From NCBI GenBank assembly GCA_001786365.1, contig MFWK01000022.1, forward strand, positions 15,087 to 79,086: a DNA stretch of 64,000 nucleotides, in the 5' to 3' direction. Numbering within the stretch: position 1 is the first letter of the stretch; every line of letters begins with the position of its first letter. The stretch is from Candidatus Nomurabacteria bacterium RIFOXYD2_FULL_35_12. Its GTDB lineage: Bacteria > Patescibacteriota > Minisyncoccia > Phycocordibacterales > UBA9973. Positions 1-39,736 of the stretch are shown here, one piece after another. Position numbers and translations under genes: made by a program. The notes under the pieces are model-generated. The model searched no databases. It was not told the DNA's origin and worked only from the letters and a program-made list of their open reading frames with translations.

Positions 1-1320
1 GTTATCTTTCCATTTGAAACCTTGCGCCAATGCTTTTTCTTTTGAAAGTGGCATATATTCGTTTACTATTGATTCATTATATGCAAATGGGCTCATCCAA
101 ATTGGAAAGAAGTTGCCCCAATCTCCATTTTTCTTCATGTTTTTAATAATTTGTGGAGCAAGTTTTTCATATTCTTCTTTTGAATATTGTTTATTTAAAA
201 TACAATATGATTTTTTACGAAGTCCATAACAACCAAAAATATTATTGCAATTAAAACATGCCTCAGAATAAAAAACATCGTGAGAATCAACAATAGTTTG
301 TGAACTAATAACTTTATTACTTCCTAATATTGTTAAACATTGATAGCATTCTGATAAATTTCCCGTAAAAGATATATCATAAGAATCTATGGCTTCACGA
401 ACAGTAAAGCAAAATCTCGAATTTTCGCCACTTTTTATGTCAAAAGAATTATGAATATTGTGACCATTATATATATGATTTCCTGAAACATTGTTATTAT
501 GCGAACCAAAAAAAGAACGCTGGGGAAGCTTTTTACGTAAAGTATTTTGTTCCTCTAAAATATATTCTAAGGTTGATTTTTCATTAAGTGGATGTTTAAT
601 TAAGAATTCTTTATATTCTTCTTTTGTAACAGGCTTATTAAAAATATAATAAGATTTATTTACTTGACCTACACAACCAATACAATTTAAACAATTTCTA
701 CAATCAAAAAGACCTATTCCATCGACACAAGCTTCGCATTCTTGCGAGTAAAAAAGTTTTGTGCTTCCTAGACAATCGATACATTCATAGCATGATTCAC
801 TTTTGAATAAATATAAGTTATCTAACGAATCTCTAGAATTCCAAACAATGTGTCCATAATCACAATCTTCATCATTTAAACCGCCGAAAATAAGATAACA
901 ATTTCTACTATTATCAATTTGATTAGAATATTGGCAATTTTCTGACCGCACACTCCAAATAGCAAGATGTGGGACCTTATTAAAAAGTTCTGAAATTTGA
1001 GTAAAAAAAGATTTTTTTAGATCAAGATTTATCCCGTAAGAGATGGCATCCCAATTGTCACTCCACCATTCTGTAATATCATAAACAGGAAAAGGCGCAT
1101 TAGGATTATAAGCTGAAATAATCATTTTACCCGACATACTTGATGGTCTTTTATAAAGTGTCTTAAAATTTCTAAAAAGTGTACGAAGTTGTTGACGACA
1201 TTCAGGACATTTTCCCGGCATTGGCACTTGTATTTTTTCATAAAATCCAAAATCATCTTCTTCTATAATGAATTTTTCTTTACAATTTTTACAATTTTTT
1301 ATTTCAGCTTCAGTTTTCAT
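1..1320 (-). CDS. Cys-rich multi-zinc-ribbon protein, paralog 1 (partial; C-terminal part lies beyond window start)
   Basis: Minus-strand ATG at 1320..1318 overlaps the purL stop (TAATG) and the frame stays open to position 1. Translation MKTEAEIKNCKNCKEKFIIEEDDFGFYEKIQVPMPGKCPECRQQLRTLFRN... shares the N-terminal CxxC..FYEK..CPECR motif and the internal CxxCxxCxGC...YCILNKQYSKEEYEKL repeats with ORFs 34418..36169 and 38054..39736. It is missing from the ORF track because it is truncated by the window edge. Confidence 0.6.
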   Translation of the reverse strand, partial: MKTEAEIKNCKNCKEKFIIEEDDFGFYEKIQVPMPGKCPECRQQLRTLFRNFKTLYKRPSSMSGKMIISAYNPNAPFPVYDITEWWSDNWDAISYGINLDLKKSFFTQISELFNKVPHLAIWSVRSENCQYSNQIDNSRNCYLIFGGLNDEDCDYGHIVWNSRDSLDNLYLFKSESCYECIDCLGSTKLFYSQECEACVDGIGLFDCRNCLNCIGCVGQVNKSYYIFNKPVTKEEYKEFLIKHPLNEKSTLEYILEEQNTLRKKLPQRSFFGSHNNNVSGNHIYNGHNIHNSFDIKSGENSRFCFTVREAIDSYDISFTGNLSECYQCLTILGSNKVISSQTIVDSHDVFYSEACFNCNNIFGCYGLRKKSYCILNKQYSKEEYEKLAPQIIKNMKKNGDWGNFFPIWMSPFAYNESIVNEYMPLSKEKALAQGFKWKDN

Positions 1321-4241
1321 TATTTTTGCGAATTAGAGAATTTGTGATAAATAGCAGTTAGTTTTTTTACAGTTGTTTCTACCACTTTTATAGTGGACAC
1401 TCGGTGTCCACTATTCTTAGTATCAGTAATAATAAACCTTCCCGCTGTTGTCACTTTCCCTAGTTTAACATAATAGATATCTTTCATTATTTTTTCAAAA
1501 ACTTTTACGTTTTTAGGAGCTACTGACACGAGTATCCTGCCTTGACTTTCGGAAAAAAGCTTGGCATCAGCTGTCAAACACCCGATGTTTGACACAGATA
1601 TATTGCATCCGATATTTCCTCCCACACAGGCTTTGGCTAAAGCAATTCCGAGTCCGCCAGAATTTACTGATATAGAAGAAGCTAAAAGTTCTTTCTGAAT
1701 AGCTTTTTCTGTAGCTAAATATGTTTTGATATTTTTTTCTAAATTAACTTTCGGTACACTATTACCAACTGCACCTAACATTTTAAAATATTCCCCTCCC
1801 CCGAGTTCGTCATTTGTTTCACCTAACAAATAAATTACATCTCCATTGTTTTTAAATTCAGGTGAAACGGTTTTGTATAAATCCGGCATTACACTTATTG
1901 CTGAAATTAAAAGTGTCGGTGGAATAGAAATAGCGACTTCATTGCCCTTTTCATCATAGCCTTTAAAATCATTAAACATGCTGTCTTTTCCTGATATAAA
2001 TGGTGTTCCATAGCCTATAGAGTAGTCATAACAGGCTTTTACGGCGTCTACGAGTTGTCCTAGGCGTTTTGGGTCATTTGATGAGCACCAACAGAAATTG
2101 TCCAAAATAGCGAGTTCTTTGAGGGTTCCACCACAAGCAATAGAATTTCTAATAGCAGTATCTAATGCGCAGGATGCCATGTGGTAGGTGCTGATGTCTC
2201 CATATGATGGATAAACTCCTGTTGATAAAACGACTCCTTTGTTTGAATTTAAAACTGGACGAAAGACTTGGGCGTCGGTATTTATTAGTCCAGCACCAGT
2301 GGTGGGTTTTAATACGGATGATGATTGCACTTCGTGGTCATATTGCTGTGAGATAAAATTAAATCCACTGATATTATTTTGGGCGAGCAGATTTTCAAGA
2401 GTTTTTGTAGAATTTTTATTCCCATCCTTATGGAGGAGGGGTGCAGGGGTGGTGATTTTATATGGCTCAGTAATTAAATGATGTTTTGGTAGGCCATTGT
2501 GCAGGAATTCCATATCTAAATTCATTATTTTTTTTCCTTGATAACTTATTACAACTTTTCCGGAATTAGTAAATTCACCTATTACTGTGGCTTCTACTCC
2601 ACGACTTTTCATTAAATTATAAAATATTTTCCATTTATTTTTTGGAACAGAGAGAGTCATACGTTCTTGTGATTCGGAAATCCAGATTTCCCAAGGACTT
2701 AAGCCAGGATATTTTAGTGGTACCTTATCTAAATATATTTTCACTCCTCCGCATTCCCTTGCCATTTCTGCCACAGATGAAGAGAGTCCACCTGCTCCAT
2801 CGTCGGTAATGCTGTTATATAAATTCATGTTGCGAGCCTCTTTGATTATCGCGTCGCTTAATTTCTTTTGAGTTATTGGATCACCGATTTGGACAGCGGT
2901 GGCAGGCGAAGTGGAGTCTATTCTTACCGAAGAAAACGTCGCCCCATGAATACCGTCGAGCCCAACTCTTCCACCAACCATGACTACATAATCTCCTGCT
3001 TGAGCTTTTTTCTCGTGAGAAGGTCGCTTTTTACCTCCATCTGCAGGTAAATTTCTGGGAATTAACCCTATTGTGCCAGCAAATACTAAAGGTTTACCCC
3101 TATATCTGTCATCATATTTTACAAATCCAGACAAAGTGGGTATTCCGGAGCAATTTCCACCAACATTTATTCCTTTTATTACGCCATCCATAATCCTTTT
3201 TGGAGAAAGCATTTTTTGTGTTTTTCCCTTATCTCGGAAAAGAGGCCTTTTATCATTTGGCTCACCAAAACAAAAACCATATGCATTTACCACTGGTTTA
3301 GACCCTAGTCCAAATCCTATTATGTCGCGATTTACTCCACCTATCCCTGTGACTGCCCCACCAAATGGGTCAAGAGCCGAAGGACTGTTGTGTGTTTCCA
3401 CTTTATGGGTGATTAAATAATTTTTATCAAAAATTATTCCGCCGGCGTTGTCAGAAAATACTGAAACACAGAAATCATCCTTGCCTTTTTGTTTTCGAAT
3501 CAAGTTTGTTGCACCTTTTATGTAAGTTTTATACAAGCCGTCCTTGATATCATCAATAGGATTAGCAAAAATCGTGTGTTTGCAGTGTTCGGACCATGTC
3601 TGTGCCAAAGACTCTAGCTCTATATCTGTGGGATTTCTTTTTAATTTAGAAAAATACTCTTTGATAACCTTCATTGAAGACAAATCTAGTGCTAGTGGCC
3701 CTCTGCGTGATCCATCTTCATTTTTTATCCCTTTTTCCCCTATTTCAATAAGTTCAGCATCTTCCACATCTAAAGATACACTTATAACTGGCTTTTTCTT
3801 TTTGAGAATAACTTTAGGAATTTCATTCGGTAAGTTTATTTTATTTGATTTTATAGGCACAATGTTAGCCCTTTCAATGAGCGGGTTATAAAGGGTTAAT
3901 GAATATTCTCGTACTTTTTCAATTTCTTTCTCTTTTATAAAGAAAATTTTTGAGGTGTATACATTAAAGTTAAAATCTTTTTTTAGATGAAGTAAATCAG
4001 TGGCAATTTCTTTGACTGTATGGCCGACATTGTCTGTAACACCCGGTAAAAAACCTATCTCAATAGCACATTGATAATTGTTTATTTTTGGAGATTCATT
4101 AATAAAGTAATCTTCTAATGTTGGATTAGTGAGCATTTCTGCGAGCTTTATGAGTTCTTTTTTAGATAATTTTGAGTCAATTAGATATGAATCTGCCTTG
4201 GTTGATACTTTTTTAGGCGCAATATATATCCGAGAAATCAT
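1320..4241 (-). CDS. purL: Phosphoribosylformylglycinamidine synthase, synthetase subunit (large-type PurL with N-terminal domain, no glutaminase domain)
   Basis: 973 aa. Hallmark motifs are present: AQTWSEHCKHTIF, and the AIR-synthase-related GATNLIRKQKGKDDF...THNSPSALDPFGGAVTGIGGVNRDI. Confidence 0.85.
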   Translation of the reverse strand: MISRIYIAPKKVSTKADSYLIDSKLSKKELIKLAEMLTNPTLEDYFINESPKINNYQCAIEIGFLPGVTDNVGHTVKEIATDLLHLKKDFNFNVYTSKIFFIKEKEIEKVREYSLTLYNPLIERANIVPIKSNKINLPNEIPKVILKKKKPVISVSLDVEDAELIEIGEKGIKNEDGSRRGPLALDLSSMKVIKEYFSKLKRNPTDIELESLAQTWSEHCKHTIFANPIDDIKDGLYKTYIKGATNLIRKQKGKDDFCVSVFSDNAGGIIFDKNYLITHKVETHNSPSALDPFGGAVTGIGGVNRDIIGFGLGSKPVVNAYGFCFGEPNDKRPLFRDKGKTQKMLSPKRIMDGVIKGINVGGNCSGIPTLSGFVKYDDRYRGKPLVFAGTIGLIPRNLPADGGKKRPSHEKKAQAGDYVVMVGGRVGLDGIHGATFSSVRIDSTSPATAVQIGDPITQKKLSDAIIKEARNMNLYNSITDDGAGGLSSSVAEMARECGGVKIYLDKVPLKYPGLSPWEIWISESQERMTLSVPKNKWKIFYNLMKSRGVEATVIGEFTNSGKVVISYQGKKIMNLDMEFLHNGLPKHHLITEPYKITTPAPLLHKDGNKNSTKTLENLLAQNNISGFNFISQQYDHEVQSSSVLKPTTGAGLINTDAQVFRPVLNSNKGVVLSTGVYPSYGDISTYHMASCALDTAIRNSIACGGTLKELAILDNFCWCSSNDPKRLGQLVDAVKACYDYSIGYGTPFISGKDSMFNDFKGYDEKGNEVAISIPPTLLISAISVMPDLYKTVSPEFKNNGDVIYLLGETNDELGGGEYFKMLGAVGNSVPKVNLEKNIKTYLATEKAIQKELLASSISVNSGGLGIALAKACVGGNIGCNISVSNIGCLTADAKLFSESQGRILVSVAPKNVKVFEKIMKDIYYVKLGKVTTAGRFIITDTKNSGHRVSTIKVVETTVKKLTAIYHKFSNSQK

Positions 4242-4281
4242 ATAGACATATTAATATATCTATAGGCTAAAGACAAATAAA

Positions 4282-5118
4282 TTATTTTTTATTATCGTGT
4301 AAGAAACGAACCCAGTTATTATAGAAAACTTGGCCGTTGGCGCCCCATGTTTTTGCTGGAAACTTCTTGTCATCATTATTTGGGAAATAGTGCAATGGAA
4401 CATTTATCTTGATTCCTTTATTTTTATCTCGAAAATATTCTCCACCAATATCATCGCGATCATATTCTGGATGACCTTGGATATATATCTCTCGGCCTTT
4501 TCTGCCGACAATAATGTGTGGTCCTACTTCAGGGCTTTCAACGAGAATTTCTAAATCTTTACATTTTTCAATAAGTTTTTTATTTTCTCCACGCCAACGT
4601 GAATGTGGAGCAAAGATTTGTTCATCCATGCCTTTAATAAATGGCGAATTTGATGCAATATCTACCTTGTGGTCAAAGATTCCAAACTGCTTGCAAGTAT
4701 TCATTACAGGCTCAATATTATAGAAATATTTAAGCGCAGCATGTGTAGCCCAACAGCTGTAAATAGTAGAAGAAACATTTTTTCTAACCCAATCAAGGAA
4801 TGAAGTGAACTCTTTCCAATATTTTACTTCTTCAAAAGAAACTTGTTCGAGGTTGGCCCCAGTAATTATCAGCCCATCGAGCCCATGTTTTTCAATGTCT
4901 GCAATTTTCTCGTAGTTTTTGTCAAAATATTCTTGATTGGAGTTTGATTTATGTTTATCAAAATAAAAGAAAATAGGTTTTACTGGAAATGGAGCGTTCT
5001 CAAGAAAATATTTGAACTGCTTTTCGGTACGTTCTACGACAGCGCTCGGCATAAGCATAAGAATACCCACTTGGAGCGGTGTTATACTCTTTTCTTTCGT
5101 TGTTTTTTTATCAGTCAT
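4282..5118 (-). CDS. metA: Homoserine O-acyltransferase (MetA/HTS family)
   Basis: 278 aa. Strong MetA motifs: PLQVGILMLMP, GLDGLIITGA, SCWATHAAL (catalytic Cys), APHSRW, QGHPEYD, HYFPNND. Confidence 0.8.
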   Translation of the reverse strand: MTDKKTTKEKSITPLQVGILMLMPSAVVERTEKQFKYFLENAPFPVKPIFFYFDKHKSNSNQEYFDKNYEKIADIEKHGLDGLIITGANLEQVSFEEVKYWKEFTSFLDWVRKNVSSTIYSCWATHAALKYFYNIEPVMNTCKQFGIFDHKVDIASNSPFIKGMDEQIFAPHSRWRGENKKLIEKCKDLEILVESPEVGPHIIVGRKGREIYIQGHPEYDRDDIGGEYFRDKNKGIKINVPLHYFPNNDDKKFPAKTWGANGQVFYNNWVRFLHDNKK

Positions 5119-5123
5119 GTTTG

Positions 5124-5690
5124 CTATCTTATCATAATTACAGAACCATCAGGTAAAGTTTTTTGTGCATCATTAAAACCTATTGCTTGTGCAAATCCTA
5201 TACTTCCGGCGTTTTCTTTTTTAATTACTGCTGAAAATTTAACATTAGGTATCTTGGAAGCATAAATATTCATTGCAAACTTTCCAAATTCTTTCATTAA
5301 TCCTTTACCTCGAAATTCTGGATAAGCGCGCCATGCGGATGCATGAAAATCCTCTTTTATTTCGTCTAATGATTTAGGTCCGAACCAAATTATGGCCGCT
5401 AATTTATTTGTATTTTTTTGCACAAGTACAAAAGGAGTTCTATTTTTCTTATACCAATCTTCATATTTTCCAAGCCCGAAACGTTTTCTATCGGAAGTAT
5501 TCTTTTGGATTTCTATGTCACTCTCATCTAATGACAATGCTTTTAATTGAATGACTTTTTCTTTATCCAAGCCCACAAAAACAGAAAAATTATCTCCTTC
5601 TTTACTTGTCGCATCTGCGATATTTATATTCGTATACATAAGCAAAGGCAAACTCGGCAATACTATATTTTCTTTTTGATTTATTATCAT
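5124..5690 (-). CDS. GNAT-family N-acetyltransferase (putative)
   Basis: 188 aa. Acetyl-CoA binding-like motif RGKGLMKEFGKFAM; size and context fit GNAT. Confidence 0.5.
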   Translation of the reverse strand: MIINQKENIVLPSLPLLMYTNINIADATSKEGDNFSVFVGLDKEKVIQLKALSLDESDIEIQKNTSDRKRFGLGKYEDWYKKNRTPFVLVQKNTNKLAAIIWFGPKSLDEIKEDFHASAWRAYPEFRGKGLMKEFGKFAMNIYASKIPNVKFSAVIKKENAGSIGFAQAIGFNDAQKTLPDGSVIMIR

Positions 5691-5716
5691 AGTTATAAGA
5701 TTATATCATAATTTTT

Positions 5717-7591
5717 TTACTCCACAGTCACGCTTTTGGCCAGATTGCGGGGTTTGTCGACATCGTTACCTCTTTCTACTGATATATAGTATGCCAAAAG
5801 TTGCATTGGAACAAAAGCCAAGATTGGAGTCAGGATTTCAAGAGTCTTTGGAATATATATCACGTCATCAGCTATATTATTTAATTCTTTATTGCCTTCA
5901 GTTGTGAGTGCGATGACTATACCTCCACGAGCTTTTATTTCTTGGATATGAGATTTATTTTTTTCATACATACTATCTATTGGCGCGATAACGAGCGAAG
6001 GAAAATCCTTATCAATTAAAGAAATCGGTCCATGCTTTAGTTCTGCAGAATTGCATCCTTCGGCATGAATATATGAACATTCTTTTAATTTTAATGCTCC
6101 TTCCATCGCTGCACCAGTATTATATTTACGTCCTAGAAAGAAAAAGTTTTCACTCTTTTTATATTTTTTTGCAAGCTGTTTTATGTGTTTAGAATTTTTT
6201 AAAATAATTTCTACTAGAGCTGGAAGTTTCTCTATTTCTTTCAAGATTTCCTGACTTTTATTTTTTGAAAGATTGCCGCGCATTCTTCCTAAATAAATTG
6301 CGAGCATAATTAAAAGGAGAACTTGCGAGGTGGATGCTTTTGTTGAGGCTACAGCAGTTTCTGGTCCAATATGATTGTAAATACCGGCATCGACTTCCCT
6401 TGCTATGGTTGACCCTATAACATTCACGACGCCGAGCGTTAGCATCTTATCTCTTTTTGCTTTTTTGATGGCATTTAATGTGTCGGCGGTTTCGCCAGAT
6501 TGCGAAATTGCGATTAATCCAGCCCTATAAGGTGTCGCAACATCACGATAAGTGAATTCTGAACCATATTCTACTTTTGTTCTTATTCCAGACAACTCTT
6601 CGATGGCATATTCACCTATTAAACCAGCAAAACGAGCTGTTCCCATTCCCACTATTGTGAGATGATTTAAATTTTCTAATTCTTTTTTAAATTTTTCCAA
6701 GCCCCCAAATTTAACATTCCCTTTTTCCAACACAATTCTTCCACGCATAGTGTTTCTTAGAGATTCTGGCTGTTCAAATATTTCTTTCAACATAAAATGT
6801 GGAAAACCACCTTTTTCTAGTTCTTCTATTTTTATTTTTAATTGATGAATGTAAGGAATCTTTACGGTTTTATCTGTTATTGTTTTTATTTTTAAATTAA
6901 ATTTTTTGTTTTTATTATTTATTACAGCCATTTCTCCGTCTTCTAAATAAATAACTTTTTTTGTGTGCTCAATGATGGGTGTAGCGTCAGAAGCAATAAA
7001 AAACTCATTTTTTCCTACTCCAATAACGACAGGACTGCCGAGCTTGGCTATTACCATAGTGTCCGGTTCTTCTTTTGAGATAACTAATATGGCATAAGCT
7101 CCATTTACTTCATTTAATGCCAACCGTACAGCCTCATCAATGGATACTTTTGCATGTTTTTTTACATCTTCAATTAAATTTGCCAAAACTTCGGTATCGG
7201 TATCGCTTTTAAACTTATATCCTTTATTAATTAATATCTTTTTTATAGAAAGATAATTTTCAATAATGCCATTGTGCACTATCGCAATCGTCCCATCATT
7301 TGATAAATGCGGATGAGCATTTGAATCTGAAGGTATACCATGTGTGGCCCAACGTGTGTGTGCTATGCCTATTTTTCCAGAAAGATTTTTTTTAATTTCT
7401 TCTTTATTTAAATTTTTTATAAATTTAGACAACTCTACTACTTTGCCTTTCTTTTTACAGACAAAAAAAGCTCTGTCATTCATTAAAGCAATTCCCGCAG
7501 AATCATATCCGCGATATTCGAGGCGTTCTAATCCCTTGATTAAAATAGGCCAAGCTTCCTTTTTCCCAATGTATCCGACAATGCCACACAT
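5717..7591 (-). CDS. glmS: Glutamine--fructose-6-phosphate aminotransferase
   Basis: 624 aa. N-terminal MCGIVGYIG (Ntn amidotransferase) followed by two SIS domains. Confidence 0.9.
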   Translation of the reverse strand: MCGIVGYIGKKEAWPILIKGLERLEYRGYDSAGIALMNDRAFFVCKKKGKVVELSKFIKNLNKEEIKKNLSGKIGIAHTRWATHGIPSDSNAHPHLSNDGTIAIVHNGIIENYLSIKKILINKGYKFKSDTDTEVLANLIEDVKKHAKVSIDEAVRLALNEVNGAYAILVISKEEPDTMVIAKLGSPVVIGVGKNEFFIASDATPIIEHTKKVIYLEDGEMAVINNKNKKFNLKIKTITDKTVKIPYIHQLKIKIEELEKGGFPHFMLKEIFEQPESLRNTMRGRIVLEKGNVKFGGLEKFKKELENLNHLTIVGMGTARFAGLIGEYAIEELSGIRTKVEYGSEFTYRDVATPYRAGLIAISQSGETADTLNAIKKAKRDKMLTLGVVNVIGSTIAREVDAGIYNHIGPETAVASTKASTSQVLLLIMLAIYLGRMRGNLSKNKSQEILKEIEKLPALVEIILKNSKHIKQLAKKYKKSENFFFLGRKYNTGAAMEGALKLKECSYIHAEGCNSAELKHGPISLIDKDFPSLVIAPIDSMYEKNKSHIQEIKARGGIVIALTTEGNKELNNIADDVIYIPKTLEILTPILAFVPMQLLAYYISVERGNDVDKPRNLAKSVTVE

Positions 7592-7597
7592 GACAAA

Positions 7598-8611
7598 ATG
7601 ATAGCAAAATTCATTGATTTAGGCTATTATTTAATGATGAAAAATATTGTTAATATCGGCGGTGGAACTGGAAGATATACTGTTTTATCTGGCCTTAAGA
7701 ATATTCCAAACATTTCCCTTACAGCCCTTGTCACTATGGCTGATGATGGCGGATCTACTGGCGTACTTATGGATGAACTAGGTGTCTTGCCTCCTGGAGA
7801 TGTAAGGCAATGCCTTGTAGCTCTTTCCGAGCACAGTGATGTGGTGCGTAAATTAATGAATTATAGATTTGAAAATGGAGGACTTGGTGGGCATAATTTC
7901 GGCAATATTTTCCTAGCAGCGCTGGAAAAAGTTACTGGGGATTTTGCTAAGGGTGTAGAAATTGCCTCAGAAATTCTAAAAGTAAAAGGTAAAGTGATAC
8001 CGATAACAAAAGACAGGGCAAAATTATCTGTTTCATTTTTAAATGGAAAATCTGCCGAGGGTGAAAATAGAATTGACCACATGAATCTACAGAAGTCTGG
8101 GGTTGATAATATTTTTTATAAAGACAAAGTAAAACTAAATGAAAATGCTAAACGCGCAATCCTAAAAGCAGATTATATAATCCTTGGCCCTGGTGATTAT
8201 TTTACTTCCATAATTCCGAATTTAATTGTGAATGGTTTTAAAGAAGCATTTAAAAAAAGTAAAGCGAAGATAATTCTACCGATAAATCTCACAAATAAAA
8301 AAGGCCATACGACGCACTGGAAAGTGAGCGACTATGTAAAATTTATGGAAAAATATCTTGAAAAGCCTGTTGATTTTATTCTCGTTAATACCGAGATGCC
8401 TTCCAAAGAGCAGATAAAAAAATACAAGATAAAAGAAGGAGACGATGTGCTCGTAGAGGATGATTTTAAAGATTCGAGAGTAATTAGAGGATCTCTTTTA
8501 TCACATGCATCTATTGTAAGCAACAAAGCCGATAAATTAGCTGATACACGAAGTTTTATTCGTCACGATTCAGAAAAATTAGCAGAGTGTATTAATAAAA
8601 TAATTTCTTAA
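7598..8611 (+). CDS. YvcK/CofD-like (UPF0052) gluconeogenesis-factor family protein
   Basis: 337 aa. MKNIVNIGGGTGRYTVLSGLK...TMADDGGSTG...PPGDVRQCLVAL is typical of the YvcK/CofD family. Divergent from glmS. Confidence 0.7.
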   Translation: MIAKFIDLGYYLMMKNIVNIGGGTGRYTVLSGLKNIPNISLTALVTMADDGGSTGVLMDELGVLPPGDVRQCLVALSEHSDVVRKLMNYRFENGGLGGHNFGNIFLAALEKVTGDFAKGVEIASEILKVKGKVIPITKDRAKLSVSFLNGKSAEGENRIDHMNLQKSGVDNIFYKDKVKLNENAKRAILKADYIILGPGDYFTSIIPNLIVNGFKEAFKKSKAKIILPINLTNKKGHTTHWKVSDYVKFMEKYLEKPVDFILVNTEMPSKEQIKKYKIKEGDDVLVEDDFKDSRVIRGSLLSHASIVSNKADKLADTRSFIRHDSEKLAECINKIIS

Positions 8612-31946: not shown

Positions 31947-31986
31947 GTAACCTTATTTATACCTTAATTTTGGAAAAAGGGCAAAA

Positions 31987-32010
31987 GAAAACCCCTATTT
32001 AAGGGGTTTT
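31987..32010. terminator. Bidirectional hairpin AAAACCCCTATTTAAGGGGTTTT
   Basis: 5-bp G/C stem flanked by A- and T-runs, immediately 3' of rpmG. Confidence 0.55.
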
Positions 32011-32020
32011 CTGAGAAAAT

Positions 32021-32179
32021 CTATTTCTTTATCTCTTTATGCTTTGTCTGCTTTCGGCACCATTTGCAATACTTTTTGAGCTCGATCTTTTTAGTGACGA
32101 GTTTCTTGTTTTTACTGGACCAGTAATTTACGCGTTTGCAGGTTCCGCAGGCGAGTTTTATAAGTCTATCTTGTGACAT
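32021..32179 (-). CDS. rpmG: 50S ribosomal protein L33
   Basis: Not in the ORF track (52 aa). Translation MSQDRLIKLACGTCKRVNYWSSKNKKLVTKKIELKKYCKWCRKQTKHKEIKK carries the L33 CxxC...LELKKYCxxCRKHTxHKExK signature. Confidence 0.75.
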   Translation of the reverse strand: MSQDRLIKLACGTCKRVNYWSSKNKKLVTKKIELKKYCKWCRKQTKHKEIKK

Positions 32180-32204
32180 ATCTATATATTAGTATAAAAA
32201 ATCT

Positions 32205-32235
32205 TAAATTGCAACCCCGAAGCAGAGCCTAGGCT
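32205..32235. repeat. GC-rich palindromic element (family E; ends resemble family C)
   Basis: CCCCGAAGCAGAGCCTAGGCTCGCTACGGGG contains the perfect 12-bp palindrome GAGCCTAGGCTC, flanked by CCCCGAAGC/GCTACGGGG. It begins CCCCG and ends CGGGGCAGG like family C copies. Confidence 0.55.
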
Positions 32236-32256
32236 CGCTACGGGGCAGGCTCCCAT

Positions 32257-33405
32257 TTATGTGTAAAATCTTTTAATAAGAGGGTTAATTCGAGTAATAG
32301 TTTCATACCAAGATAAATCTAAAATATTACTAATCCCTTCCATAGAACAAGACGAATTGCTATCATTTCCAATAACTACAACTTCATCTCCTGCATATAG
32401 ATTTTTTACTTCACTTACATCAATACAAACCATATCCATAGAAACCCTACCGATGACTTTACATTCTTCCCCTTTGACAATCATCCTGCCGATTGAAGAA
32501 AGAGAGCGAGGATATCCATGCCAATACCCCACAGGCACGATAGCTATCAAGCCATCTTTGGCTAATGATTCTGTTAGATCATAGCCCATTCGATTACCCT
32601 TTGGTTGTTTTTTGATTTCAGTAATTAATGATTTCCAAGAAAGGATTGGCTTAAGTAAAATCTTGTCTTGCAAAGCAGCCTTAGTTTCTTTTGAAGGCCA
32701 TAAACCATAAAGTCCTATGCCTATGCGCACCATATCAAAATGAGAATTTGGGAAAAGTAATGCACCAGCTGTGGCTCCCGCATGAGCTATTGGTTTCAAA
32801 CCCTCTTGCTTAAAATCATGAATCCATAATTTGAAATCTTTTATCTGCCCTTCAGTATCTGCAGGAAAAGATGGATTTTTTGCAGAAGCAAAATGAGTAA
32901 ATAATCCTTCGACATAAATATTGTCATTTTTCTGTGAGCTCAAAATTTTTAACAATTTTTTACGGTCTTCCATTTGAAATCCTTGACGATGCATGCCTGT
33001 ATCAACCTTTATATGAATATTCAAAGGTTTAATAAAATGTTTTTGATTAGCAATTATGTATTCTAATGATTCAAAATTTGATACAGATAAAGAAATATTA
33101 TTACTGGTAGCTAAATTAACCATTTCTGGAAGCGTATAACCTAACACCAAAATAGGCGTTTTAATTCCTTCTTTCCTTAAAGCTAAACCTTCCACTATCG
33201 AATCTACACCCAAAAAATTAGCCCCTAAATTCTCCATTTCTCGCGCAAAATCAATAAGACTGTGGCCATAAGCATTAGATTTTATTACTGCCATGAGCTT
33301 AGTTTTTTTAGAAATCAAAGATCGAAAGACTGAAAAATTGTGAGCAACAGCTTTTCGGTCAATTTCAATCCAAGTCCTCAAGCCTTTTCTTTGTTCTTTA
33401 TTCAT
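32257..33405 (-). CDS. alr: Alanine racemase
   Basis: 382 aa. PLP-Lys motif AVIKSNAYGHS and a C-terminal beta domain. Confidence 0.85.
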   Translation of the reverse strand: MNKEQRKGLRTWIEIDRKAVAHNFSVFRSLISKKTKLMAVIKSNAYGHSLIDFAREMENLGANFLGVDSIVEGLALRKEGIKTPILVLGYTLPEMVNLATSNNISLSVSNFESLEYIIANQKHFIKPLNIHIKVDTGMHRQGFQMEDRKKLLKILSSQKNDNIYVEGLFTHFASAKNPSFPADTEGQIKDFKLWIHDFKQEGLKPIAHAGATAGALLFPNSHFDMVRIGIGLYGLWPSKETKAALQDKILLKPILSWKSLITEIKKQPKGNRMGYDLTESLAKDGLIAIVPVGYWHGYPRSLSSIGRMIVKGEECKVIGRVSMDMVCIDVSEVKNLYAGDEVVVIGNDSNSSCSMEGISNILDLSWYETITRINPLIKRFYT

Positions 33406-33408
33406 TCT

Positions 33409-34377
33409 TTATTTAACTGTAGTTTTTAATTTCTGTTCTCTTTCAAAACGAGCTATTGCAAAACTTATCAATTTGTCTAAAAGAATCGTCTGTGATATTC
33501 CGTCTGCCTCCCATAACTTTGGATACATGCTGATGTTTGTGAATCCAGGGATGGTATTTATCTCATTCGCTATCACTTCTCCATTTTCCTTCAAGAAAAA
33601 GTCAACTCGGCCCATTCCTTCGCAAGATAACACTTTAAATACTTTCACAGCCAACTCTTGGACTTTTTTAGAAGTTTCCTTGCTGATTTTTGCAGGAATA
33701 TTTATAACATATCCATCGTCTATATATTTTGCATCATATGAATAGAAATCTTGATTCGCAATAATTTCCCCCGGAGTTGAAGCAATAGGATTCTCATTAC
33801 CCATGACAGAACATTCTATTTCTCGCCCATCAATAAATTCTTCAATAACTATTTTACTATCAAACTTAAATGCTTCTGTGACAGCTTTTTTAAAATCTTT
33901 TTCATTTCGTACTTTACTGATTCCAACAGAAGAACCCATATTTGCCGGTTTGATGAATAATGGCAAACCCAATTTATTTTTAACTTCATTAAAATTTATT
34001 TTTTCATTATTCCTAATAGTTATAAATTTCCCTATCGGAATACCTGCATCTCGGAATAATCTTTTCATCACATCTTTGTCCATACCCACAGCCGAACCGA
34101 GCACACTCGGACCCACAAATGGAACACCAGCCAACTTGAGCAAACCTTGCATGCTACCATCTTCGCCAAAAGGTCCGTGCATTACCGGAAAAATCACATC
34201 AAATTTTTTAACTAAATTGAAATCAAAATTTCCATCCCGTCCTATTTTTATTGGAGTTATTTCATATTTCGTCTTATCTAGGGCATTTATTACATTTTTA
34301 GCGGACAACAAAGACACATCATGTTCTGCTGATTTGCCTCCAAAAAGCACCCCAATTTTTAATTTCTTCTTTGCCAT
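33409..34377 (-). CDS. ddl: D-alanine--D-alanine ligase
   Basis: 322 aa. ATP-grasp motifs IGVLFGGKSAEHDVSL, EEFIDGREIECSV. Confidence 0.85.
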   Translation of the reverse strand: MAKKKLKIGVLFGGKSAEHDVSLLSAKNVINALDKTKYEITPIKIGRDGNFDFNLVKKFDVIFPVMHGPFGEDGSMQGLLKLAGVPFVGPSVLGSAVGMDKDVMKRLFRDAGIPIGKFITIRNNEKINFNEVKNKLGLPLFIKPANMGSSVGISKVRNEKDFKKAVTEAFKFDSKIVIEEFIDGREIECSVMGNENPIASTPGEIIANQDFYSYDAKYIDDGYVINIPAKISKETSKKVQELAVKVFKVLSCEGMGRVDFFLKENGEVIANEINTIPGFTNISMYPKLWEADGISQTILLDKLISFAIARFEREQKLKTTVK

Positions 34378-34417
34378 AGGGTGTAGTATACAATAATTAT
34401 TTTAAAAATACACTTTT

Positions 34418-36169
34418 CTAATATACTTCTTTTTTGTAACAACTGTCACAGTAAATAATTTCTGGTCTGTCGGGAGCATAGGAAGTTTCAAATTCATTTT
34501 TGCATCCTTGGTTCATACACTTCCTGTGATAAAGTTTTGGTGGGTTTAATATTTCTATTCTTTCCATATGTCTACAATTTGGACAAAGTTTTGGTAATGG
34601 CACTTCTAATATTTTAGAAATGTTTAATTCATTTTGAATTATACGAAAAGCAGTGGTGCATTTATGATTACAATCACCATTATGTTCGCATTGTATTATT
34701 TCTTTTAAAATATTATCGTCAGCATTTTTTATTACTGGTAGTTTATCAAAAGTAATTGTCGGCTTATAATTTTTTACTTCAGGCTCTTTATACTTATATC
34801 CTTTTCTTAAAATTTCTTCTTTAGTTAATGGAAAATATTCTGAAACCACCGAATCATTATAAGCGAAAGGAATAATTTCAAATGGAAAAAATTCTCCATA
34901 TTTGTATATTCTCCCTTTTTTATCAATAAAAGGCATCTCTTCCATACTTTTTTTAATTTTAAGTACAAATTCATCATATTCTTCTTTACTATATTGTGTA
35001 TTTAAAATACAATATTGCTTTTTACGTAATCCAGCACAAGCAAAAAGATACTCAGAATTATAACAATCATCAGAATATTCAACATTGTGAGAATAATAAA
35101 CTCTGGTAGAAAATTTCACTCTATTATCTCCAAAACCGCTATGTACTTCACAGCATTCTGTTGACCCGAGGCCCACATGGTCAATATCAAAACAATCCTT
35201 TGAATTTGTCCCTGCACAGAAAAAAACGTAATTCATATTTTCACCATCGGGAACAAGAAAAGCATGATGACAGTCTTTGACATTCTCCAAATTATCACCA
35301 GTAGAATTAATTATATTTTTTATGTTTGCGTATTTTCTTGGAAAATTTAAAGAATGTTGCCAAAATTCTTTTTTCATTTTTTCCAGACTTTCTCGGTCTG
35401 ATAAATTCATTTCTTTTACTCTTCTTTCATACTCGTCTTTTGAATATTGTATATTAAAAATACAGTGAGTTTTACCAACTAAATTTGTACACCCAACACA
35501 ACTAGAGCAATTTCTGCAAGCATAAATAAACCATGAATCCATACAATTTTCCGAAAAATATCCATATTTTACTTTATAGCAATTTATTACCCGCAAAGAT
35601 TCATAACAAAGCTCATTATTATGAGAAAAATCTACATCCGAAGAACTTTTTAGATAAAAATTTTGAGCAGAATAATTTGAATCCTCATAATGATGCCCGC
35701 CAAAACAAAGATAAGAATTTTTTATATAAACAATTTGATTCGTGTATTCACTGTTTTCCGCAAAATCCTGATATAACGCACGCCTAGGAATTGATTTTAA
35801 AAGTTCTCCAAGTTGTTCAAAAAAGGATCGGAAAAAATCAATTTTTTTACCAAATTTAAATGGATCCCAATTATCTGAATTGTAACAATCAATACAGTAA
35901 ACTAGATATTTTTGCTCCGGATCATACATAGAAATCACGGATTTCTTACAAAGACCGCAATCCTGTTTATAGAGAGAACGTTCATTTCTAAAAAGCATTC
36001 TTCTCACCATCCGACACTCTGGGCACCAAGTAGGCGGAGGAACTTGGATTTTTTCGTAAAATTTGAAATCATCCGGAAAAATTGTAAATTCTTTTTTGCA
36101 GTTTTGACAATTTTTAGTTTCAACTTTCATAATTTTTTTTTCAAAAGGGCATCTCTTGGAACCATCCAA
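34418..36169 (-). CDS. Cys-rich multi-zinc-ribbon protein, paralog 2
   Basis: 583 aa and at least 45 Cys. N-terminal CQNCKKEFTIFPDDFKFYEKIQVPPPTWCPECR; internal tandem CxxCxxCxGC..L....YCIxNxQYSKxEY repeats; C-terminal CPNCRH...CMNQGCKNEFETSYAPDRPEIIYCDSCYKKEVY. Confidence 0.6.
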   Translation of the reverse strand: MDGSKRCPFEKKIMKVETKNCQNCKKEFTIFPDDFKFYEKIQVPPPTWCPECRMVRRMLFRNERSLYKQDCGLCKKSVISMYDPEQKYLVYCIDCYNSDNWDPFKFGKKIDFFRSFFEQLGELLKSIPRRALYQDFAENSEYTNQIVYIKNSYLCFGGHHYEDSNYSAQNFYLKSSSDVDFSHNNELCYESLRVINCYKVKYGYFSENCMDSWFIYACRNCSSCVGCTNLVGKTHCIFNIQYSKDEYERRVKEMNLSDRESLEKMKKEFWQHSLNFPRKYANIKNIINSTGDNLENVKDCHHAFLVPDGENMNYVFFCAGTNSKDCFDIDHVGLGSTECCEVHSGFGDNRVKFSTRVYYSHNVEYSDDCYNSEYLFACAGLRKKQYCILNTQYSKEEYDEFVLKIKKSMEEMPFIDKKGRIYKYGEFFPFEIIPFAYNDSVVSEYFPLTKEEILRKGYKYKEPEVKNYKPTITFDKLPVIKNADDNILKEIIQCEHNGDCNHKCTTAFRIIQNELNISKILEVPLPKLCPNCRHMERIEILNPPKLYHRKCMNQGCKNEFETSYAPDRPEIIYCDSCYKKEVY

Positions 36170-36186
36170 GGGATGCCCTTGGATTC

Positions 36187-37323
36187 TTAAAACAATTTAA
36201 CTATATCGTGATATGTGACAGCGAGCATCAAAATAATTAAAATACCAAAACCAATCATATTCGCAGTATTGGCAAATTTTGGATTTATGCGTGAACCTTT
36301 TATTTTTTCAATAAGTAAAAAGAAAAGTCGTCCACCGTCTAATGCTGGAAATGGCAATAAATTTATGATTGCGAGGTTCACAGAAATAAGCGCAGTAAAA
36401 GATAAAAGATAAACAAAACCGAATTGATAGGCATCACCCACGATGCCCACCATACCGACAGGTCCAGTAACTGATGAGAAGCTTCCTTTACCCTGTATAC
36501 CCTCTGCAATAAGCGTATAAAGCCCTAAAACAGTACCTTTAGTGATAAACCAAGTTAATGACATTCCCTCTTTTAAGGCTGAAAATAGGGGTAATTTGAC
36601 AGTTCCGATCATGTCCATAGATATGCCAATTTCTGGGATATTATTTGTTTTATTTATTACTGGAGTAACGACAGCTAAATTTATATTTTTGTCTTGTCCG
36701 CGTATGTATCCAACGGTTATTTCCCCGCCTGCAACGCTTTGCGTAGCATTGCGGGCAGGTTTTTTACTATGAGATAATATAAAAGATTTCAAAGTGTCAG
36801 GATTTATATCTGAAACAGAATCTTTACCACTTGCGAGTGAAATAATTTTATCACCAGACTTAAGTCCTGCTATTTGTGCTGGAGATTTCTCTAACACAGA
36901 AACAACTGTTAAATTTATATTACTCAATTTATAACCGGCAGACTCTCCACTCACAGAAGTTGGCAATCCAGACATAAAACCAATTGAAAATAAAAACCAT
37001 GCTAATAAAAGATTCGCAAAAACCCCGGCAAATAAAACTATGGCTTGTTGCCATTTTGGTTTATTAACAAAACTCCTACTCGCATCAGGTCCAAAAGTAT
37101 TTTCATCATCAGGATTCTCACCAAAAATTTTAACAAAACCACCGATAGGTAAAAGATTTAAACTATATTCAGTCTCTCCGTATTTCTTACCATAAATCTT
37201 TGGTGGAAAACCAAAACCAAATTCATCAACCCGAATACCAAACTTTTTTGCAGTAAAAAAATGCCCAAACTCATGGACCAGTACGAGGACGAGAAGTATT
37301 ATTATGAAAATTAATATATTCAA
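36187..37323 (-). CDS. rseP: RIP metalloprotease RseP (site-2 protease) with PDZ domain
   Basis: 378 aa. HEFGHFFTAKKFG (HExxH) and C-terminal LDGG. Contains the in-frame family C element (KPARNATQSVAGGE). Confidence 0.8.
   Translation of the reverse strand: MNILIFIIILLVLVLVHEFGHFFTAKKFGIRVDEFGFGFPPKIYGKKYGETEYSLNLLPIGGFVKIFGENPDDENTFGPDASRSFVNKPKWQQAIVLFAGVFANLLLAWFLFSIGFMSGLPTSVSGESAGYKLSNINLTVVSVLEKSPAQIAGLKSGDKIISLASGKDSVSDINPDTLKSFILSHSKKPARNATQSVAGGEITVGYIRGQDKNINLAVVTPVINKTNNIPEIGISMDMIGTVKLPLFSALKEGMSLTWFITKGTVLGLYTLIAEGIQGKGSFSSVTGPVGMVGIVGDAYQFGFVYLLSFTALISVNLAIINLLPFPALDGGRLFFLLIEKIKGSRINPKFANTANMIGFGILIILMLAVTYHDIVKLF
36723..36759. repeat. Family C GC-rich quasi-palindromic element, copy C1 (in-frame inside rseP)
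   Basis: CCCCGCCTGCAACGCTTTGCGTAGCATTGCGGGCAGG is near-identical to 54214..54250. It sits in a coding region at ~70% GC against ~30% surroundings. Confidence 0.7.
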
Positions 37324-37350
37324 TTCGTAATTCTTAATTCGTAATTAACT

Positions 37351-37902
37351 TTACCCCATTACTTCTTTCTGTTTTTTCTCAAAACTTGCTTCTAGGTTTC
37401 TATTTGCCTCATCAATGATTTTTTGTAGTTCGTCTTTTGCTCGGAATTTTTCATCTTCGGTCAATTTTCCTGCTTTTTCTTTCTCTTCCACATCTCTCCA
37501 AATACGTTCTCGTTCTCGACGAACTGTAATTCTTTGTTCCTCTAATTTTTCTTTTAAGACTTTTACGAGGTTTTGCCTCGTTTCTGTAGTTAACTGAGGA
37601 AAAATAACTCTGATACCTAAGTCATCAGTAGCCACAGAGAGACCCAAGTTTGCAGCCACTATCGCCTTTTCAATATCTTTTACCTGACTTTTGTCCCAAG
37701 GCGTGATACGCAGAGTCTTTGAATCTTCTATGTTAATATTTGCAACATTTTTAAGCGGAACTCGTGAGCCATATGACTCTACTGATACTCCGTCTAGAAC
37801 CATAGGCGACGCACGGCCTATATTTAACTGACCGTATTCTTTAGTCAAAAATTTCCCTACTTTTTTTAACTCTGTTTTAAATTGTGAAAAGTTGTATTGC
37901 AT
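37351..37902 (-). CDS. frr: Ribosome recycling factor
   Basis: 183 aa. ...LNIGRASPMVLDGV...; typical Frr length and charge pattern. Confidence 0.9.
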   Translation of the reverse strand: MQYNFSQFKTELKKVGKFLTKEYGQLNIGRASPMVLDGVSVESYGSRVPLKNVANINIEDSKTLRITPWDKSQVKDIEKAIVAANLGLSVATDDLGIRVIFPQLTTETRQNLVKVLKEKLEEQRITVRRERERIWRDVEEKEKAGKLTEDEKFRAKDELQKIIDEANRNLEASFEKKQKEVMG

Positions 37903-38020
37903 CCCGTTAGAGATAGAGAATCTTTAGATTCTCGTAATTTTATTTAATAATTCGACAAAACATACTATCATTATTATTTACATACCCGTTTGATTTTTTA
38001 ACAATATGATCTCTAACGGG
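37903..38020. repeat. Family A MITE-like element, copy A2 (TIRs CCCGTTAGAGAT / ATCTCTAACGGG)
   Basis: Perfect 12-bp terminal inverted repeats about 94 nt apart. The left end directly abuts the frr start codon (37902). Confidence 0.75.
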
Positions 38021-38053
38021 ATTGCATATTTCCATTGTAGCACTATTTTTCAT

Positions 38054-39736
38054 TTAGTAAACCTCTTGCTGATAGCATTTCTCACAAAAAATTATCTCTG
38101 ACCGGTCTGGAGAATATGGTGTCTCAAATTTATTTTTACATCCACCCTTCATACATTTCCTATGCCAAAGTTTATTTGGTCCCCTATTTTTAAATCGTCT
38201 TGTATGTCTACACTCAGGGCAATTTCGCGGAATCGGTATATTCATTCTTTTATAAAAAATAAGTTCGTCTGTAATTATCCGATAATTTTTTTCACATTCT
38301 ATGCATACAAAAACTTCTTTATTCACGTCAAAATCTTTTGGTAATTCCAAAATAGAATCTGGAAAATTTTTCCAATCTATGGTTTCTTTACCAAAAGTGC
38401 CACGTGATGTGTCTTCCCATTTAAATCCTTGTTTTAGAGCTTCTTCTTTATTTAATGGAAACTCATCCATTACCGAAGATTCATTGTATCCAAGCGGAGC
38501 AAATTCTTTAGGGAAAAATTCCCCATAAATTCCTTCCTTTTTCATTTTCTCAATAATTTCAACGCGCAATTTCTCATATTCTTCTTTTGTGTATTGCTTA
38601 TTTAAAATGCAATAAGAGCCTTGAATCAAACCTGCACACCCAAAACAATTATTAGAATTAGGACAATTTAAACAATATTCCATAAAATTAGATTCCCAAC
38701 AATAATAACTGCAAATCACATTAGCGCATTGCATTCCAATGTTTAAAGAGTTGTAAATTAGTTCAGCTGTACGTCCGGCAGTATTACAATCCATACAATT
38801 TTTTGCTTCACGCCAAACATGAATAGAATAAGCATTATCTTCCGCATCATAAGAATGAAAACAATGCTTATTATTTCTAACATTCTTCATATAATTACCC
38901 GTAGAATTGACAGCATTTGTAATTTCCGCAAATTTTCTGGGCTTGTCTTTAATAAAATCTGCGAATTCTTTTTTAAAACTCTCAACACCAGAATAAGTGT
39001 CTAGCTTAAAAGATTTTAATTTTTTCTCGTATTCTTCTTTTGTGTATGGTTTATTAAAAATATGATATTTTTGTTCCCTTAAATTTATACATCCAAGACA
39101 GCTTGTACATCCCCTACAATCAAGCAGAAAAAAACTATCTAGACAGTTGTAACAACCTTTTGACCAACGCAAAGAATGACAATCATAACAATCGTCGACT
39201 TCATAAGAAAGTTCAACTTGATTCGTAAAAGAACAATCTGTTAAATCTTTTGAAAGCTGTATCCAATAGCAGTTCGTGCAATTTTCATTGTTAGAAGATT
39301 CCATAATCATGTAACAATTTTTTGTATCAGCAGTATGGTTAAGATATTCAGAATTAACACTGTTCATATGGACGAGAGCAGGTTTTGGAACTTTCTGCCA
39401 CAATTCATTGAACTGCTCAAAAAAAGATTTTTTAGGATTATATTCCAACGCATAATCTTTACCCTGCAAATCATCACTACGCCAACATTTGTGACACCAT
39501 ACGGGATAAGTCTTGTTGGCGCTAAACATAGAGATGGTGTTTTTTTTACAATTATCGCAGACACGTTTATATAGAAACCTTTCATTCCTAAAAATTAGCC
39601 GAAGCTGTGAACGGCACTCTGGACAAAGCTTTGGTGGAAGTACTCCCATCTTTTCATAAAATCCAAAGTCATTCGGCTCTATAGTAAAGTATTTTTTGCA
39701 GTTCTGACATATTTTATTTTCTACTATATACGCCAT
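38054..39736 (-). CDS. Cys-rich multi-zinc-ribbon protein, paralog 3
   Basis: 560 aa. N-terminal CQNCKKYFTIEPNDFGFYEKMGVLPPKLCPECR; internal repeats ending YCILNKQYTKEEYEKL; C-terminal CPECRH...CMKGGCKNKFETPYSPDRSEIIFCEKCYQQEVY. Confidence 0.6.
   Translation of the reverse strand: MAYIVENKICQNCKKYFTIEPNDFGFYEKMGVLPPKLCPECRSQLRLIFRNERFLYKRVCDNCKKNTISMFSANKTYPVWCHKCWRSDDLQGKDYALEYNPKKSFFEQFNELWQKVPKPALVHMNSVNSEYLNHTADTKNCYMIMESSNNENCTNCYWIQLSKDLTDCSFTNQVELSYEVDDCYDCHSLRWSKGCYNCLDSFFLLDCRGCTSCLGCINLREQKYHIFNKPYTKEEYEKKLKSFKLDTYSGVESFKKEFADFIKDKPRKFAEITNAVNSTGNYMKNVRNNKHCFHSYDAEDNAYSIHVWREAKNCMDCNTAGRTAELIYNSLNIGMQCANVICSYYCWESNFMEYCLNCPNSNNCFGCAGLIQGSYCILNKQYTKEEYEKLRVEIIEKMKKEGIYGEFFPKEFAPLGYNESSVMDEFPLNKEEALKQGFKWEDTSRGTFGKETIDWKNFPDSILELPKDFDVNKEVFVCIECEKNYRIITDELIFYKRMNIPIPRNCPECRHTRRFKNRGPNKLWHRKCMKGGCKNKFETPYSPDRSEIIFCEKCYQQEVY

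Follow-up and report, generated by a model that had tools for sequence, protein, structure and literature searches.

The 64,000-nucleotide stretch of Candidatus Nomurabacteria bacterium RIFOXYD2_FULL_35_12 analysed here (contig MFWK01000022.1, positions 15,087 to 79,086; G+C content 35%; hereafter the window) carries three expressed-looking genes, denoted A, B and C, which are paralogs within one very large and unnamed protein family. The family is specific to the Patescibacteria, or candidate phyla radiation (CPR). Its proteins are soluble, ~560-590 amino acids (aa) long, and combine a putative zinc module at each end with two predicted β-solenoids (M1 and M2) and an acidic domain between them. 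The commonest neighbour of the family genes in other genomes is a VirD4/TraD-like ATPase. We propose, with a probability of about 40%, that the family proteins are zinc-stabilised modular adaptors or clients of paired VirD4/TraD-like ATPases, with M1 serving recognition.

Pairwise identities among A, B and C were 38.8-41.0% over essentially the full length, with E values from 7e-103 to 3e-132 (BLASTP), and their paralogy is therefore beyond doubt. This agrees with an earlier sequence-only reading of the same DNA, which had described three old duplicates of low mutual identity. Other genomes contain distinct orthologues of each paralog at 57-85% identity, those of B and C forming separate sets, and one related locus (L033) retains the order mreB-holB-F-frr-rseP-F(-F)-ddl, where F is a family gene. 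The separate orthologues and the retained order indicate that the duplications are old and stably inherited. B is 100% identical to a protein (P0121 / UR90_C0013G0006) of Parcubacteria group bacterium GW2011_GWC1_35_8.

A sequence search with C returned 7,026 significant clusters at 90% identity among 8,000 scored candidates, and a search with B returned 5,610. A profile search of 1.84 billion representatives at 50% identity yielded 5,419 clusters at E<1e-3, 3,776 at E<1e-10 and 2,278 at E<1e-30; the matches were, almost without exception, 540-600 aa long and aligned end to end. With two exceptions, the informative source labels all read "hypothetical protein", and the lineages that they named belong to the CPR (Nomura-, Lipton-, Staskawicz-, Niyogi-, Azam-, Brenner-, Ryan-, Falkow-, Gracili- and Abawacabacteria, and Paceibacterota). 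The two exceptions were a protein binned as Burkholderiales in a metagenome-assembled genome (P0047; 277 kb contig, 72% identity to C) and one labelled Bacteroidales (L079; 1.7 kb contig, ~42% identity to C). Both are probably CPR contigs placed in the wrong bin, not instances of the family beyond the CPR.

The protein as a whole falls in no family of Pfam, NCBIfam or the PDB, and no Pfam model matches the central ~380 residues in the window proteins or in 57 relatives. The first ~90 residues of the window proteins scored 15.8-18.7 bits against zf_Tbcl (PF13451; gathering threshold 24), 12.8-17.4 bits against zf_Tbcl_2 (PF23477; cut-off 27) and 15.5 bits against TIGR04272 (cut-off 36). Among the 57 relatives, 16 reached E<=0.01 with zf_Tbcl (best 1.6e-6) and 17 with zf_Tbcl_2. 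Because 16 of 57 relatives match while the window copies score below threshold, the zf_Tbcl domain type is likely, and the window copies are not formal members. NCBIfam, PADLOC and PHROGs gave nothing usable for A, B or C, the weak phrog_15341 match of A being probably compositional. In the PDB, sequence and profile searches did not rise above noise, the top match being to a LIM protein (E 0.15), and Foldseek found no PDB match to the full model at E<=0.001. The view that the proteins belong to no named family thus stood in Pfam, NCBIfam, PADLOC, PHROGs and PDB sequence searches; in particular, neither a radical-SAM maturase partner nor a known metal chaperone was matched with confidence in Pfam or NCBIfam, and no radical-SAM gene was among the recurrent neighbours of family loci. 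No description of the family, of its motifs or of a cysteine-rich solenoid protein of the CPR turned up in the literature searched.

Three known kinds of protein did not fit. A metallothionein-like store is small, with >15% Cys and few aromatic residues, whereas the window proteins have 5-7% Cys, 560-580 aa and many conserved Phe, Tyr and Trp. A 4Fe-4S ferredoxin-type domain would require CxxCxxCxxxCP; the motif found is CxxCxxCxxC without Pro, and no Fer4 Pfam model matched. Nor was a known anti-phage defence system recognised, no PADLOC model matching any of the three proteins. Among viruses, tblastn against 50,697 phage genomes gave no match. Matches in IMG/VR were not accepted as family members, as they were low-complexity (CxxCxx)n proteins only. 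Two phage contigs of IMG/VR (L084, 6891..8687; L085, 7893..8954) carry tandem pairs of near-pure (C-x-x)n proteins (CRDCSGCSDC..., CRNCTSCTSC...), those of L084 with a Cys/His-containing C-terminal domain after the repeats. They align only to the part of M1 with Cys at every third residue.

Domain architecture and predicted structure

The proteins consist, in order, of an N-terminal zinc module (ZnN), a helix, M1, helices, M2, the acidic domain X and a C-terminal zinc module (ZnC) (Table 1). With hhalign, the N and C modules (~90 residues each) matched at E 2.9e-23, and M1 matched M2 with a probability of 99.8% (E 1.2e-30); on these grounds ZnC is a duplicate of ZnN, and M2 a degenerate copy of M1. 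The sequence-only reading had counted at least two internal repeats per protein and called them tandem. There are two, and they are modules of ~120 aa lying ~150 residues apart (hhalign E 1e-30) rather than in tandem. All the motifs it quoted were recovered, namely CxxC...FYEK...CPECR, CxxCxxCxGC...YCILNKQY[ST]KEEYE (twice per protein) and the C-termini IIYCDSCYKKEVY and IIFCEKCYQQEVY. Its figure of at least 40 Cys per protein was too high, the counts being 39 in C, 34 in B (35 if translated from the TTG) and 23 in the incomplete A. No signal peptide or transmembrane segment was predicted in the family proteins.

Each terminal module is a double Cys4 unit of treble-clef type. The four terminal Cys4 sets are conserved at 89-100%. 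The CxxC-x17-CxxC domain binds zinc in small proteins of Methanosarcina, as measured by inductively coupled plasma mass spectrometry (PMC12704099), from which we infer four structural zinc sites in the terminal Cys4 sets. The CxxCxxCxxC at the end of M1 is a putative fifth metal site. The description of a multi-zinc-ribbon protein is thus supported, with terminal fingers that resemble zf_Tbcl and zf_Tbcl_2 below threshold. Both N-terminal ribbons are complete in B and C. In a correction to the earlier description, paralog A lacks all four Cys of the second N-terminal finger (CxxC missing at residues 60-84), a loss that recurs in other subfamilies. Both basic modules contain an invariant CPxCR-x3-R-x3-RNER helix, and the centre of the protein is acidic by comparison (isoelectric point, pI, 4.6-5.9). 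Domain X has the conserved pattern GEFFP...F.YNE...FPL.KEEA...G..W.

The AlphaFold2 (AF2) model of C had a predicted template modelling score (pTM) of 0.84 and a predicted local distance difference test score (pLDDT) of 79, with high confidence in the zinc modules, linkers and domain X. M1 has a 12-residue periodicity. The solenoid Cys outside the conserved sets of Table 1 are only 30-75% conserved and interchange with Ser; all of them stand at positions divisible by three, with a 12-residue repeat. M1 and M2 are predicted to be β-solenoids of 12-residue coils, with small Cys and Ser residues lining the core.

A comparison of 112 C-type and 36 B-type orthologues pointed to M1 as the part in which the paralogs differ in function. 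Its within-group entropy was the lowest of all domains (0.91 and 0.64 bits), and 26 of its 120 positions were conserved within the B and C groups and differed between them, against 2-11 in the other domains. In terms of sequence, this pattern is what purifying selection on a function particular to each paralog would leave, and is unlike the trace of a fast arms race. Since M1 is conserved within orthologue groups and most different between paralogs, it is probably the specificity module, and the face of its solenoid probably the recognition surface.

Table 1. Positions of the three family genes in the window and of the predicted parts and conserved cysteines of their products.
Feature	Protein and residues	Coordinates	Strand	Remarks
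Paralog A	A	1..1320	minus	first 440 codons (aa); gene exits the window start, C-terminal ~120 aa outside
Paralog B, mechanical ORF	B	34418..36169	minus	583 aa from TTG
Paralog B, preferred start	B	34418..36136	minus	572 aa from ATG at 36136, stop codon included
Paralog C	C	38054..39736	minus	complete, 560 aa; reference for residue numbering
ZnN	C 1-95	39452..39736	minus	double Cys4; pI 9.1; pLDDT 84-92
ZnN equivalent	B	35852..36136	minus	
ZnN equivalent	A	1036..1320	minus	
ZnN finger 1, putative ligands	C10, C13, C38, C41			invariant in 57 sequences
ZnN finger 2, putative ligands	C60, C63, C81, C84			CxxC-x17-CxxC; in B and C
M1	C 126-245	39002..39361	minus	predicted β-solenoid, 12-residue coils
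M1 end	C198, C207, C210, C213, C216			Cys cluster, then hairpin and helix cap Y-x-I-F-N-x-x-Y-[ST]-KEEYE
M1, conserved Cys	198, 207, 210, 213, 216			93-100% conserved
M2	C 275-395	38552..38914	minus	degenerate M1 copy; ends YCILNKQYTKEEYEKL
M2 equivalent	B	34952..35314	minus	
M2 equivalent	A	145..498	minus	
M2, conserved Cys	358, 367, 376			these only
Acidic domain X	C 396-470	38327..38551	minus	pI 4.6; aromatic-rich; pLDDT ~90
ZnC	C 471-560	38057..38326	minus	double Cys4; pI 9.2
ZnC equivalent	B	34421..34711	minus	
ZnC finger 1, putative ligands	C478, C481, C506, C509			98% conserved
ZnC finger 2, putative ligands	C528, C533, C551, C554			C528-x4-C533-x17-C551-x2-C554

Family genes and VirD4-like ATPases in other genomes

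Neighbourhoods were compared in both directions. In the forward test, open reading frames (ORFs) flanking the family genes within ±6 kb were clustered at 80 loci from species-representative genomes; in the reverse test, metagenome contigs were scanned with an alignment of the ATPases, giving another 80 loci. Family genes usually stood in co-directional tandem arrays, with at least two copies in 48 of the 80 genome loci and up to six or seven in some. Matches of tblastn spanning ~2.1 kb that might have been insertions were rejected as such, being adjacent tandem copies joined by the search. The commonest neighbour, at 22 of 80 loci, was a VirD4/TraD-like ATPase, recognised by its TrwB_AAD_bind, TraG-D_C, T4SS-DNA_transf and DUF87 domains; the second commonest neighbour family occurred at 10. 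The ATPase gene lay a median of one gene from the family gene, often at a distance of 5-90 bp, on the same strand. Against PADLOC these ATPases gave superfamily-level mad8/HerA matches only.

The ATPases are of two types, here called type IV coupling proteins (T4CP) 1 and 2. T4CP1, of 600-870 aa, contains a genuine zf_Tbcl_2 finger (E 1.4e-14) and has EVPEDVLRKILE at its C-terminus; in T4CP2, of ~490 aa, a low-complexity linker leads to a conserved C-terminal tail, E-x-EP-[LMI]-[IV]. The recurrent order was T4CP1, one to three family genes, T4CP2, and this locus is often found within the hrcA-grpE-dnaK-dnaJ region. Where no family gene intervened the two ATPase genes were directly adjacent, indicating that the ATPase pair is the older unit. 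The reverse test found family genes in 36 of its 80 loci, and in 29 of 40 when the ATPase was at least 62% identical to type 2. A family gene lay within three genes of 31 tail-bearing ATPases and not of 11 others, compared with 17 and 41 for tail-less ones (Fisher p 1.6e-5, kinship ignored), most of the 17 being type-1 partners in the same loci. The tails were surveyed in L092-L131, L136, L138, L140, L142 and L073; short tail-less type-2 forms (L132, L133, L135, L141) occurred at loci without family genes. Adjacency of family and ATPase genes persisted in rearranged loci and was present in Paceibacteria, Ryanbacteria and Gracilibacteria; in the Ryanbacteria, a DUF8128-fused ATPase lay 3 kb upstream.

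Almost all Patescibacteria genomes carry about two homologues of coupling proteins, hardly any of which lie beside type IV secretion genes: of 5,713 VirD4-like T4CPs in 2,918 genomes, only 148 lay near virB4 (PMC12102498). In Southlakia the gene for such a protein is non-essential, and these proteins have possibly been exapted (PMC12102498). For a major subgroup of these orphan T4CPs, the family described here is the neighbour found most consistently, and T4CP1 shares its finger type.

In the model that we favour, the basic zinc modules would be constant ends for docking or for nucleic-acid binding, and the solenoid face of M1 would be a variable, paralog-specific recognition surface. Constant zinc ends together with a paralog-specific M1 would make the proteins a set of adaptors, or clients, each with a different ligand. 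They may work with the orphan hexameric ATPase pair T4CP1/T4CP2, possibly alongside Hsp70, and the three copies in the window would be dispersed members settled among housekeeping genes. A more specific form of this model, which we regard as possible but speculative, is an ATP-driven machine particular to the CPR, built from T4CP1/T4CP2 and an array of zinc-finger/β-solenoid adaptors. The family would then be the missing partner of the ATPases; the T4CP2 tail, the T4CP1 zf_Tbcl_2 finger or both would dock on the zinc modules, the M1 of each paralog would pick out a different cargo, be it DNA, RNA or protein, to be translocated or remodelled, and the machine might be coupled to Hsp70.

The interest of the family lies mainly in its scale in tiny genomes and in the lead that it offers on the orphan VirD4-like ATPases. 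Several copies of a ~1.7 kb gene in Patescibacteria genomes of ~1 Mb or smaller are a large investment in an unstudied protein, and thousands of clusters with strictly conserved architecture make a clear annotation gap. The ATPase link bears on the question, raised in 2025, of what the orphan VirD4-like ATPases do (PMC12102498), and supplies a concrete candidate partner. If true, it would mean that conjugation-type coupling proteins have been put to a new use outside type IV secretion, with a modular design of constant zinc ends and variable solenoid suggested for their partners.

Alternative readings and the setting of the window genes

Several observations weigh against the adaptor model. 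No ATPase was present within ±6 kb at 58 of the 80 genome loci, and no VirD4-like ATPase was found within the window or adjoining A, B or C. The neighbourhood statistics ignore phylogenetic relatedness. At one locus (L173, 3040..11812), the order is F-F-hrcA-grpE-dnaK-x-dnaJ-F-F, where x is a 351-aa membrane protein, with HtrA and ClpB downstream and no ATPase. At another (L081), family genes stand beside ComEC, and CutA1 (divalent-ion tolerance, PF03091) was a neighbour at 13 loci, 9 of them ATPase-seeded and 4 in the genome set. From these three kinds of neighbourhood it follows that the family's partner could be something other than the ATPases. As to the fold, AF2 gave M1 and M2 a moderate pLDDT of 55-69, and DSSP assigned no strands in them.

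The basic ends invite a reading, in our view rather unlikely, in which the proteins are stand-alone nucleic-acid binders, either regulators of transcription or RNA or nucleoid proteins. Their solenoids would be spacers or effector surfaces, and adjacency to the ATPases would be incidental or reflect shared DNA handling. CPR genomes have few classical regulators, the terminal modules are Arg-rich with a pI of 9.1-9.2 and the invariant helix noted above, and the genes adjoin ComEC and DNA motors of the FtsK/TraD type. Treble-clef and LIM-like fingers, however, bind protein as often, a LIM-like match is present though weak (E 0.15), and the two to seven tandem copies would be left unexplained. 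The chaperone neighbourhoods speak instead for zinc-dependent holdases or Hsp70 co-chaperones, following the logic of the DnaJ zinc finger or Hsp33, co-regulated with heat shock and independent of the ATPases. DnaK, DnaJ or GrpE occurred at 15 of the 80 genome loci, 5 of them without an ATPase, and L173 again has the chaperone genes and no ATPase. In one Paceibacteria clade (L092-L100, L125), the ATPase pair and one to three family genes lie between dnaK and dnaJ, in the order dnaK-T4CP1-F-T4CP2-dnaJ in L092-L100 (e.g., L092 genes 2-6). Much of this adjacency nevertheless coincides with the ATPase pair (10 of 13 loci), the window copies are far from chaperone genes, the window has no CIRCE element (the HrcA operator), and the proteins resemble neither the DnaJ CxxCxGxG domain nor Hsp33 in sequence. 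We therefore consider a holdase role quite unlikely.

Adjacency to VirD4-like coupling proteins would also fit effectors secreted by a type IV system into host cells, with the zinc modules as the translocation domain recognised by VirD4 and the variable solenoid as the host-targeting part. The tandem arrays of diverged paralogs and the lack of a Sec signal are compatible with this, and XVIPCD-type effectors likewise have conserved termini and a variable centre. We judge it very unlikely, because the paralogs are old and under purifying selection, with M1 most conserved within orthogroups and with stable housekeeping synteny, which is unlike an arms race. The T4CPs are almost never near virB4 (the 148 of 5,713 cited above; PMC12102498), and five metal-stabilised sites would presumably hinder unfolding for secretion. 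Highly improbable, finally, is a role in metal handling, whether as a buffer or store of zinc or other divalent cations or as an Fe-S or redox protein using CxxCxxCxxC. For it can be cited the 34-39 Cys per protein, the CutA1 gene lying between T4CP2 and a family gene at the 9 ATPase-seeded loci, as well as its presence at the 4 genome loci, and an ArsR-family regulator with a helix-turn-helix domain (HTH_5, ~90 aa) directly upstream of a family gene on a contig from Ryanbacteria (L082, 9719..9994), with others close to family genes in L115 and L116. ArsR adjacency, at three loci, was too rare to be accepted as a functional clue. The proteins are large and aromatic-rich with only 6-7% Cys, most solenoid Cys are poorly conserved and swap with Ser, and the motif departs from that of ferredoxins.

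Some details of these neighbourhoods are recorded for completeness. CutA1 was seen at L102, L105, L122, L127, L128, L131, L014, L016, L026 and L041, in many cases with the type-2 ATPase gene on one side and the first family gene on the other. ComEC (Competence and Lactamase_B domains) directly follows three tandem family genes in L081 (10001..17735 of an 888 kb contig) and two in L036. A multi-pass membrane protein of ~195 aa without a Pfam match is encoded just downstream of family genes or dnaJ in L002, L023, L039, L042, L044, L047, L092 (gene 7) and L099.

In the window itself, the three ORFs lie where the sequence-only reading had placed them, with the correction that all are on the minus strand, and no fourth paralog was found in the rest of the 64 kb. 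The local gene order is alr-ddl-B-rseP-frr-C-holB-mreB. B and C thus bracket rseP and frr on the same strand, as had been noted, with rseP (Peptidase_M50) and frr (RRF) identified by Pfam, which also confirmed that purL precedes A. A conserved link with rseP/frr, which the earlier reading had suggested looking for, did not emerge: the arrangement recurred at 4 of 80 related loci, all of close relatives. The purL stop overlaps the start of A in TAATG (1318..1322), which suggests translational coupling. Between rseP and B, directly after the rseP stop, a terminator-like hairpin (36140..36187, minus strand) comprises the overlapping inverted repeats CCAAGGGCATCCCTTGG and GGGCATC...GATGCCC, followed by TTTTG, and encloses the mechanical TTG start of B at 36169. 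The N-terminus of the family alignment coincides with the ATG at 36136, a better fit than the TTG; because the alignment begins there and the TTG sits inside the hairpin, the ATG is preferred as the start of B.

Comparison with known systems

Both the treble-clef Cys4 finger and the short-coil β-solenoid are known kinds of structure; no description of their combination, of the family or of its association with orphan T4CPs was found in the libraries and literature searched. The terminal modules come closest to zf_Tbcl, zf_Tbcl_2 and TIGR04272. Each module consists of these two finger types, with CxxC-x24-CxxC followed by CxxC-x17-CxxC spacing, and the signature F-x-P-x-R-P-x-x-Y-C-x-x-C is shared with zf_Tbcl and zf_Tbcl_2. 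Known members, including the TIGR04272 proteins of Methanosarcina mazei, are single small domains or short proteins, whereas here two finger pairs frame ~380 residues. LIM proteins (avian CRP, 1ctl), the best PDB profile match to the C module, similarly have tandem treble-clef fingers with ...W-H-x-x-C ... Y-C-x-x-C-Y. Their match is not significant at E = 0.15, however, and LIM domains are eukaryotic with C2HC/C4 ligands, whereas the family ligands are all Cys.

The central region differs from the characterised solenoids, such as the Tenebrio molitor antifreeze protein with its 12-residue coils, the ice-binding proteins of spruce budworm and ryegrass, curli CsgA, and the pentapeptide-repeat proteins MfpA/Qnr, with which it shares 0-9% identity and no Pfam match. 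By sequence profile it belongs to none of the pentapeptide, hexapeptide/LbH or insect antifreeze repeat families. The known solenoid proteins either are secreted with disulfide bonds or act as DNA mimics, whereas the proteins of this family are cytoplasmic and are predicted to have two short helix-capped solenoids (at the modest pLDDT given above) together with zinc modules. The phage (CxxCxx)n proteins resemble it (phrog_15341-like; L084 and L085) in having Cys at every third residue and C[RK][NDG]CxxCxGC, as at the end of M1. They are of low complexity, without zinc modules or the cap motif, and their 21-28% identity is probably compositional.

The closest functional parallel may be found among the accessory proteins and clients of T4CPs, such as TraM, which is bound by the C-terminal tail of TraD, and the XVIPCD effectors bound by VirD4. 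The family genes likewise adjoin genes for VirD4/TraD-like ATPases, the proteins combine conserved modules with a variable part as XVIPCD clients do, and the acidic tail conserved at the C-terminus of the type-2 ATPase is of the sort by which TraD binds TraM. They differ from these clients in that neither their sequence nor their fold resembles TraM, relaxases or XVIPCD. The ATPases differ in turn from classical coupling proteins, being orphans far from virB4 and mostly without N-terminal membrane anchors.

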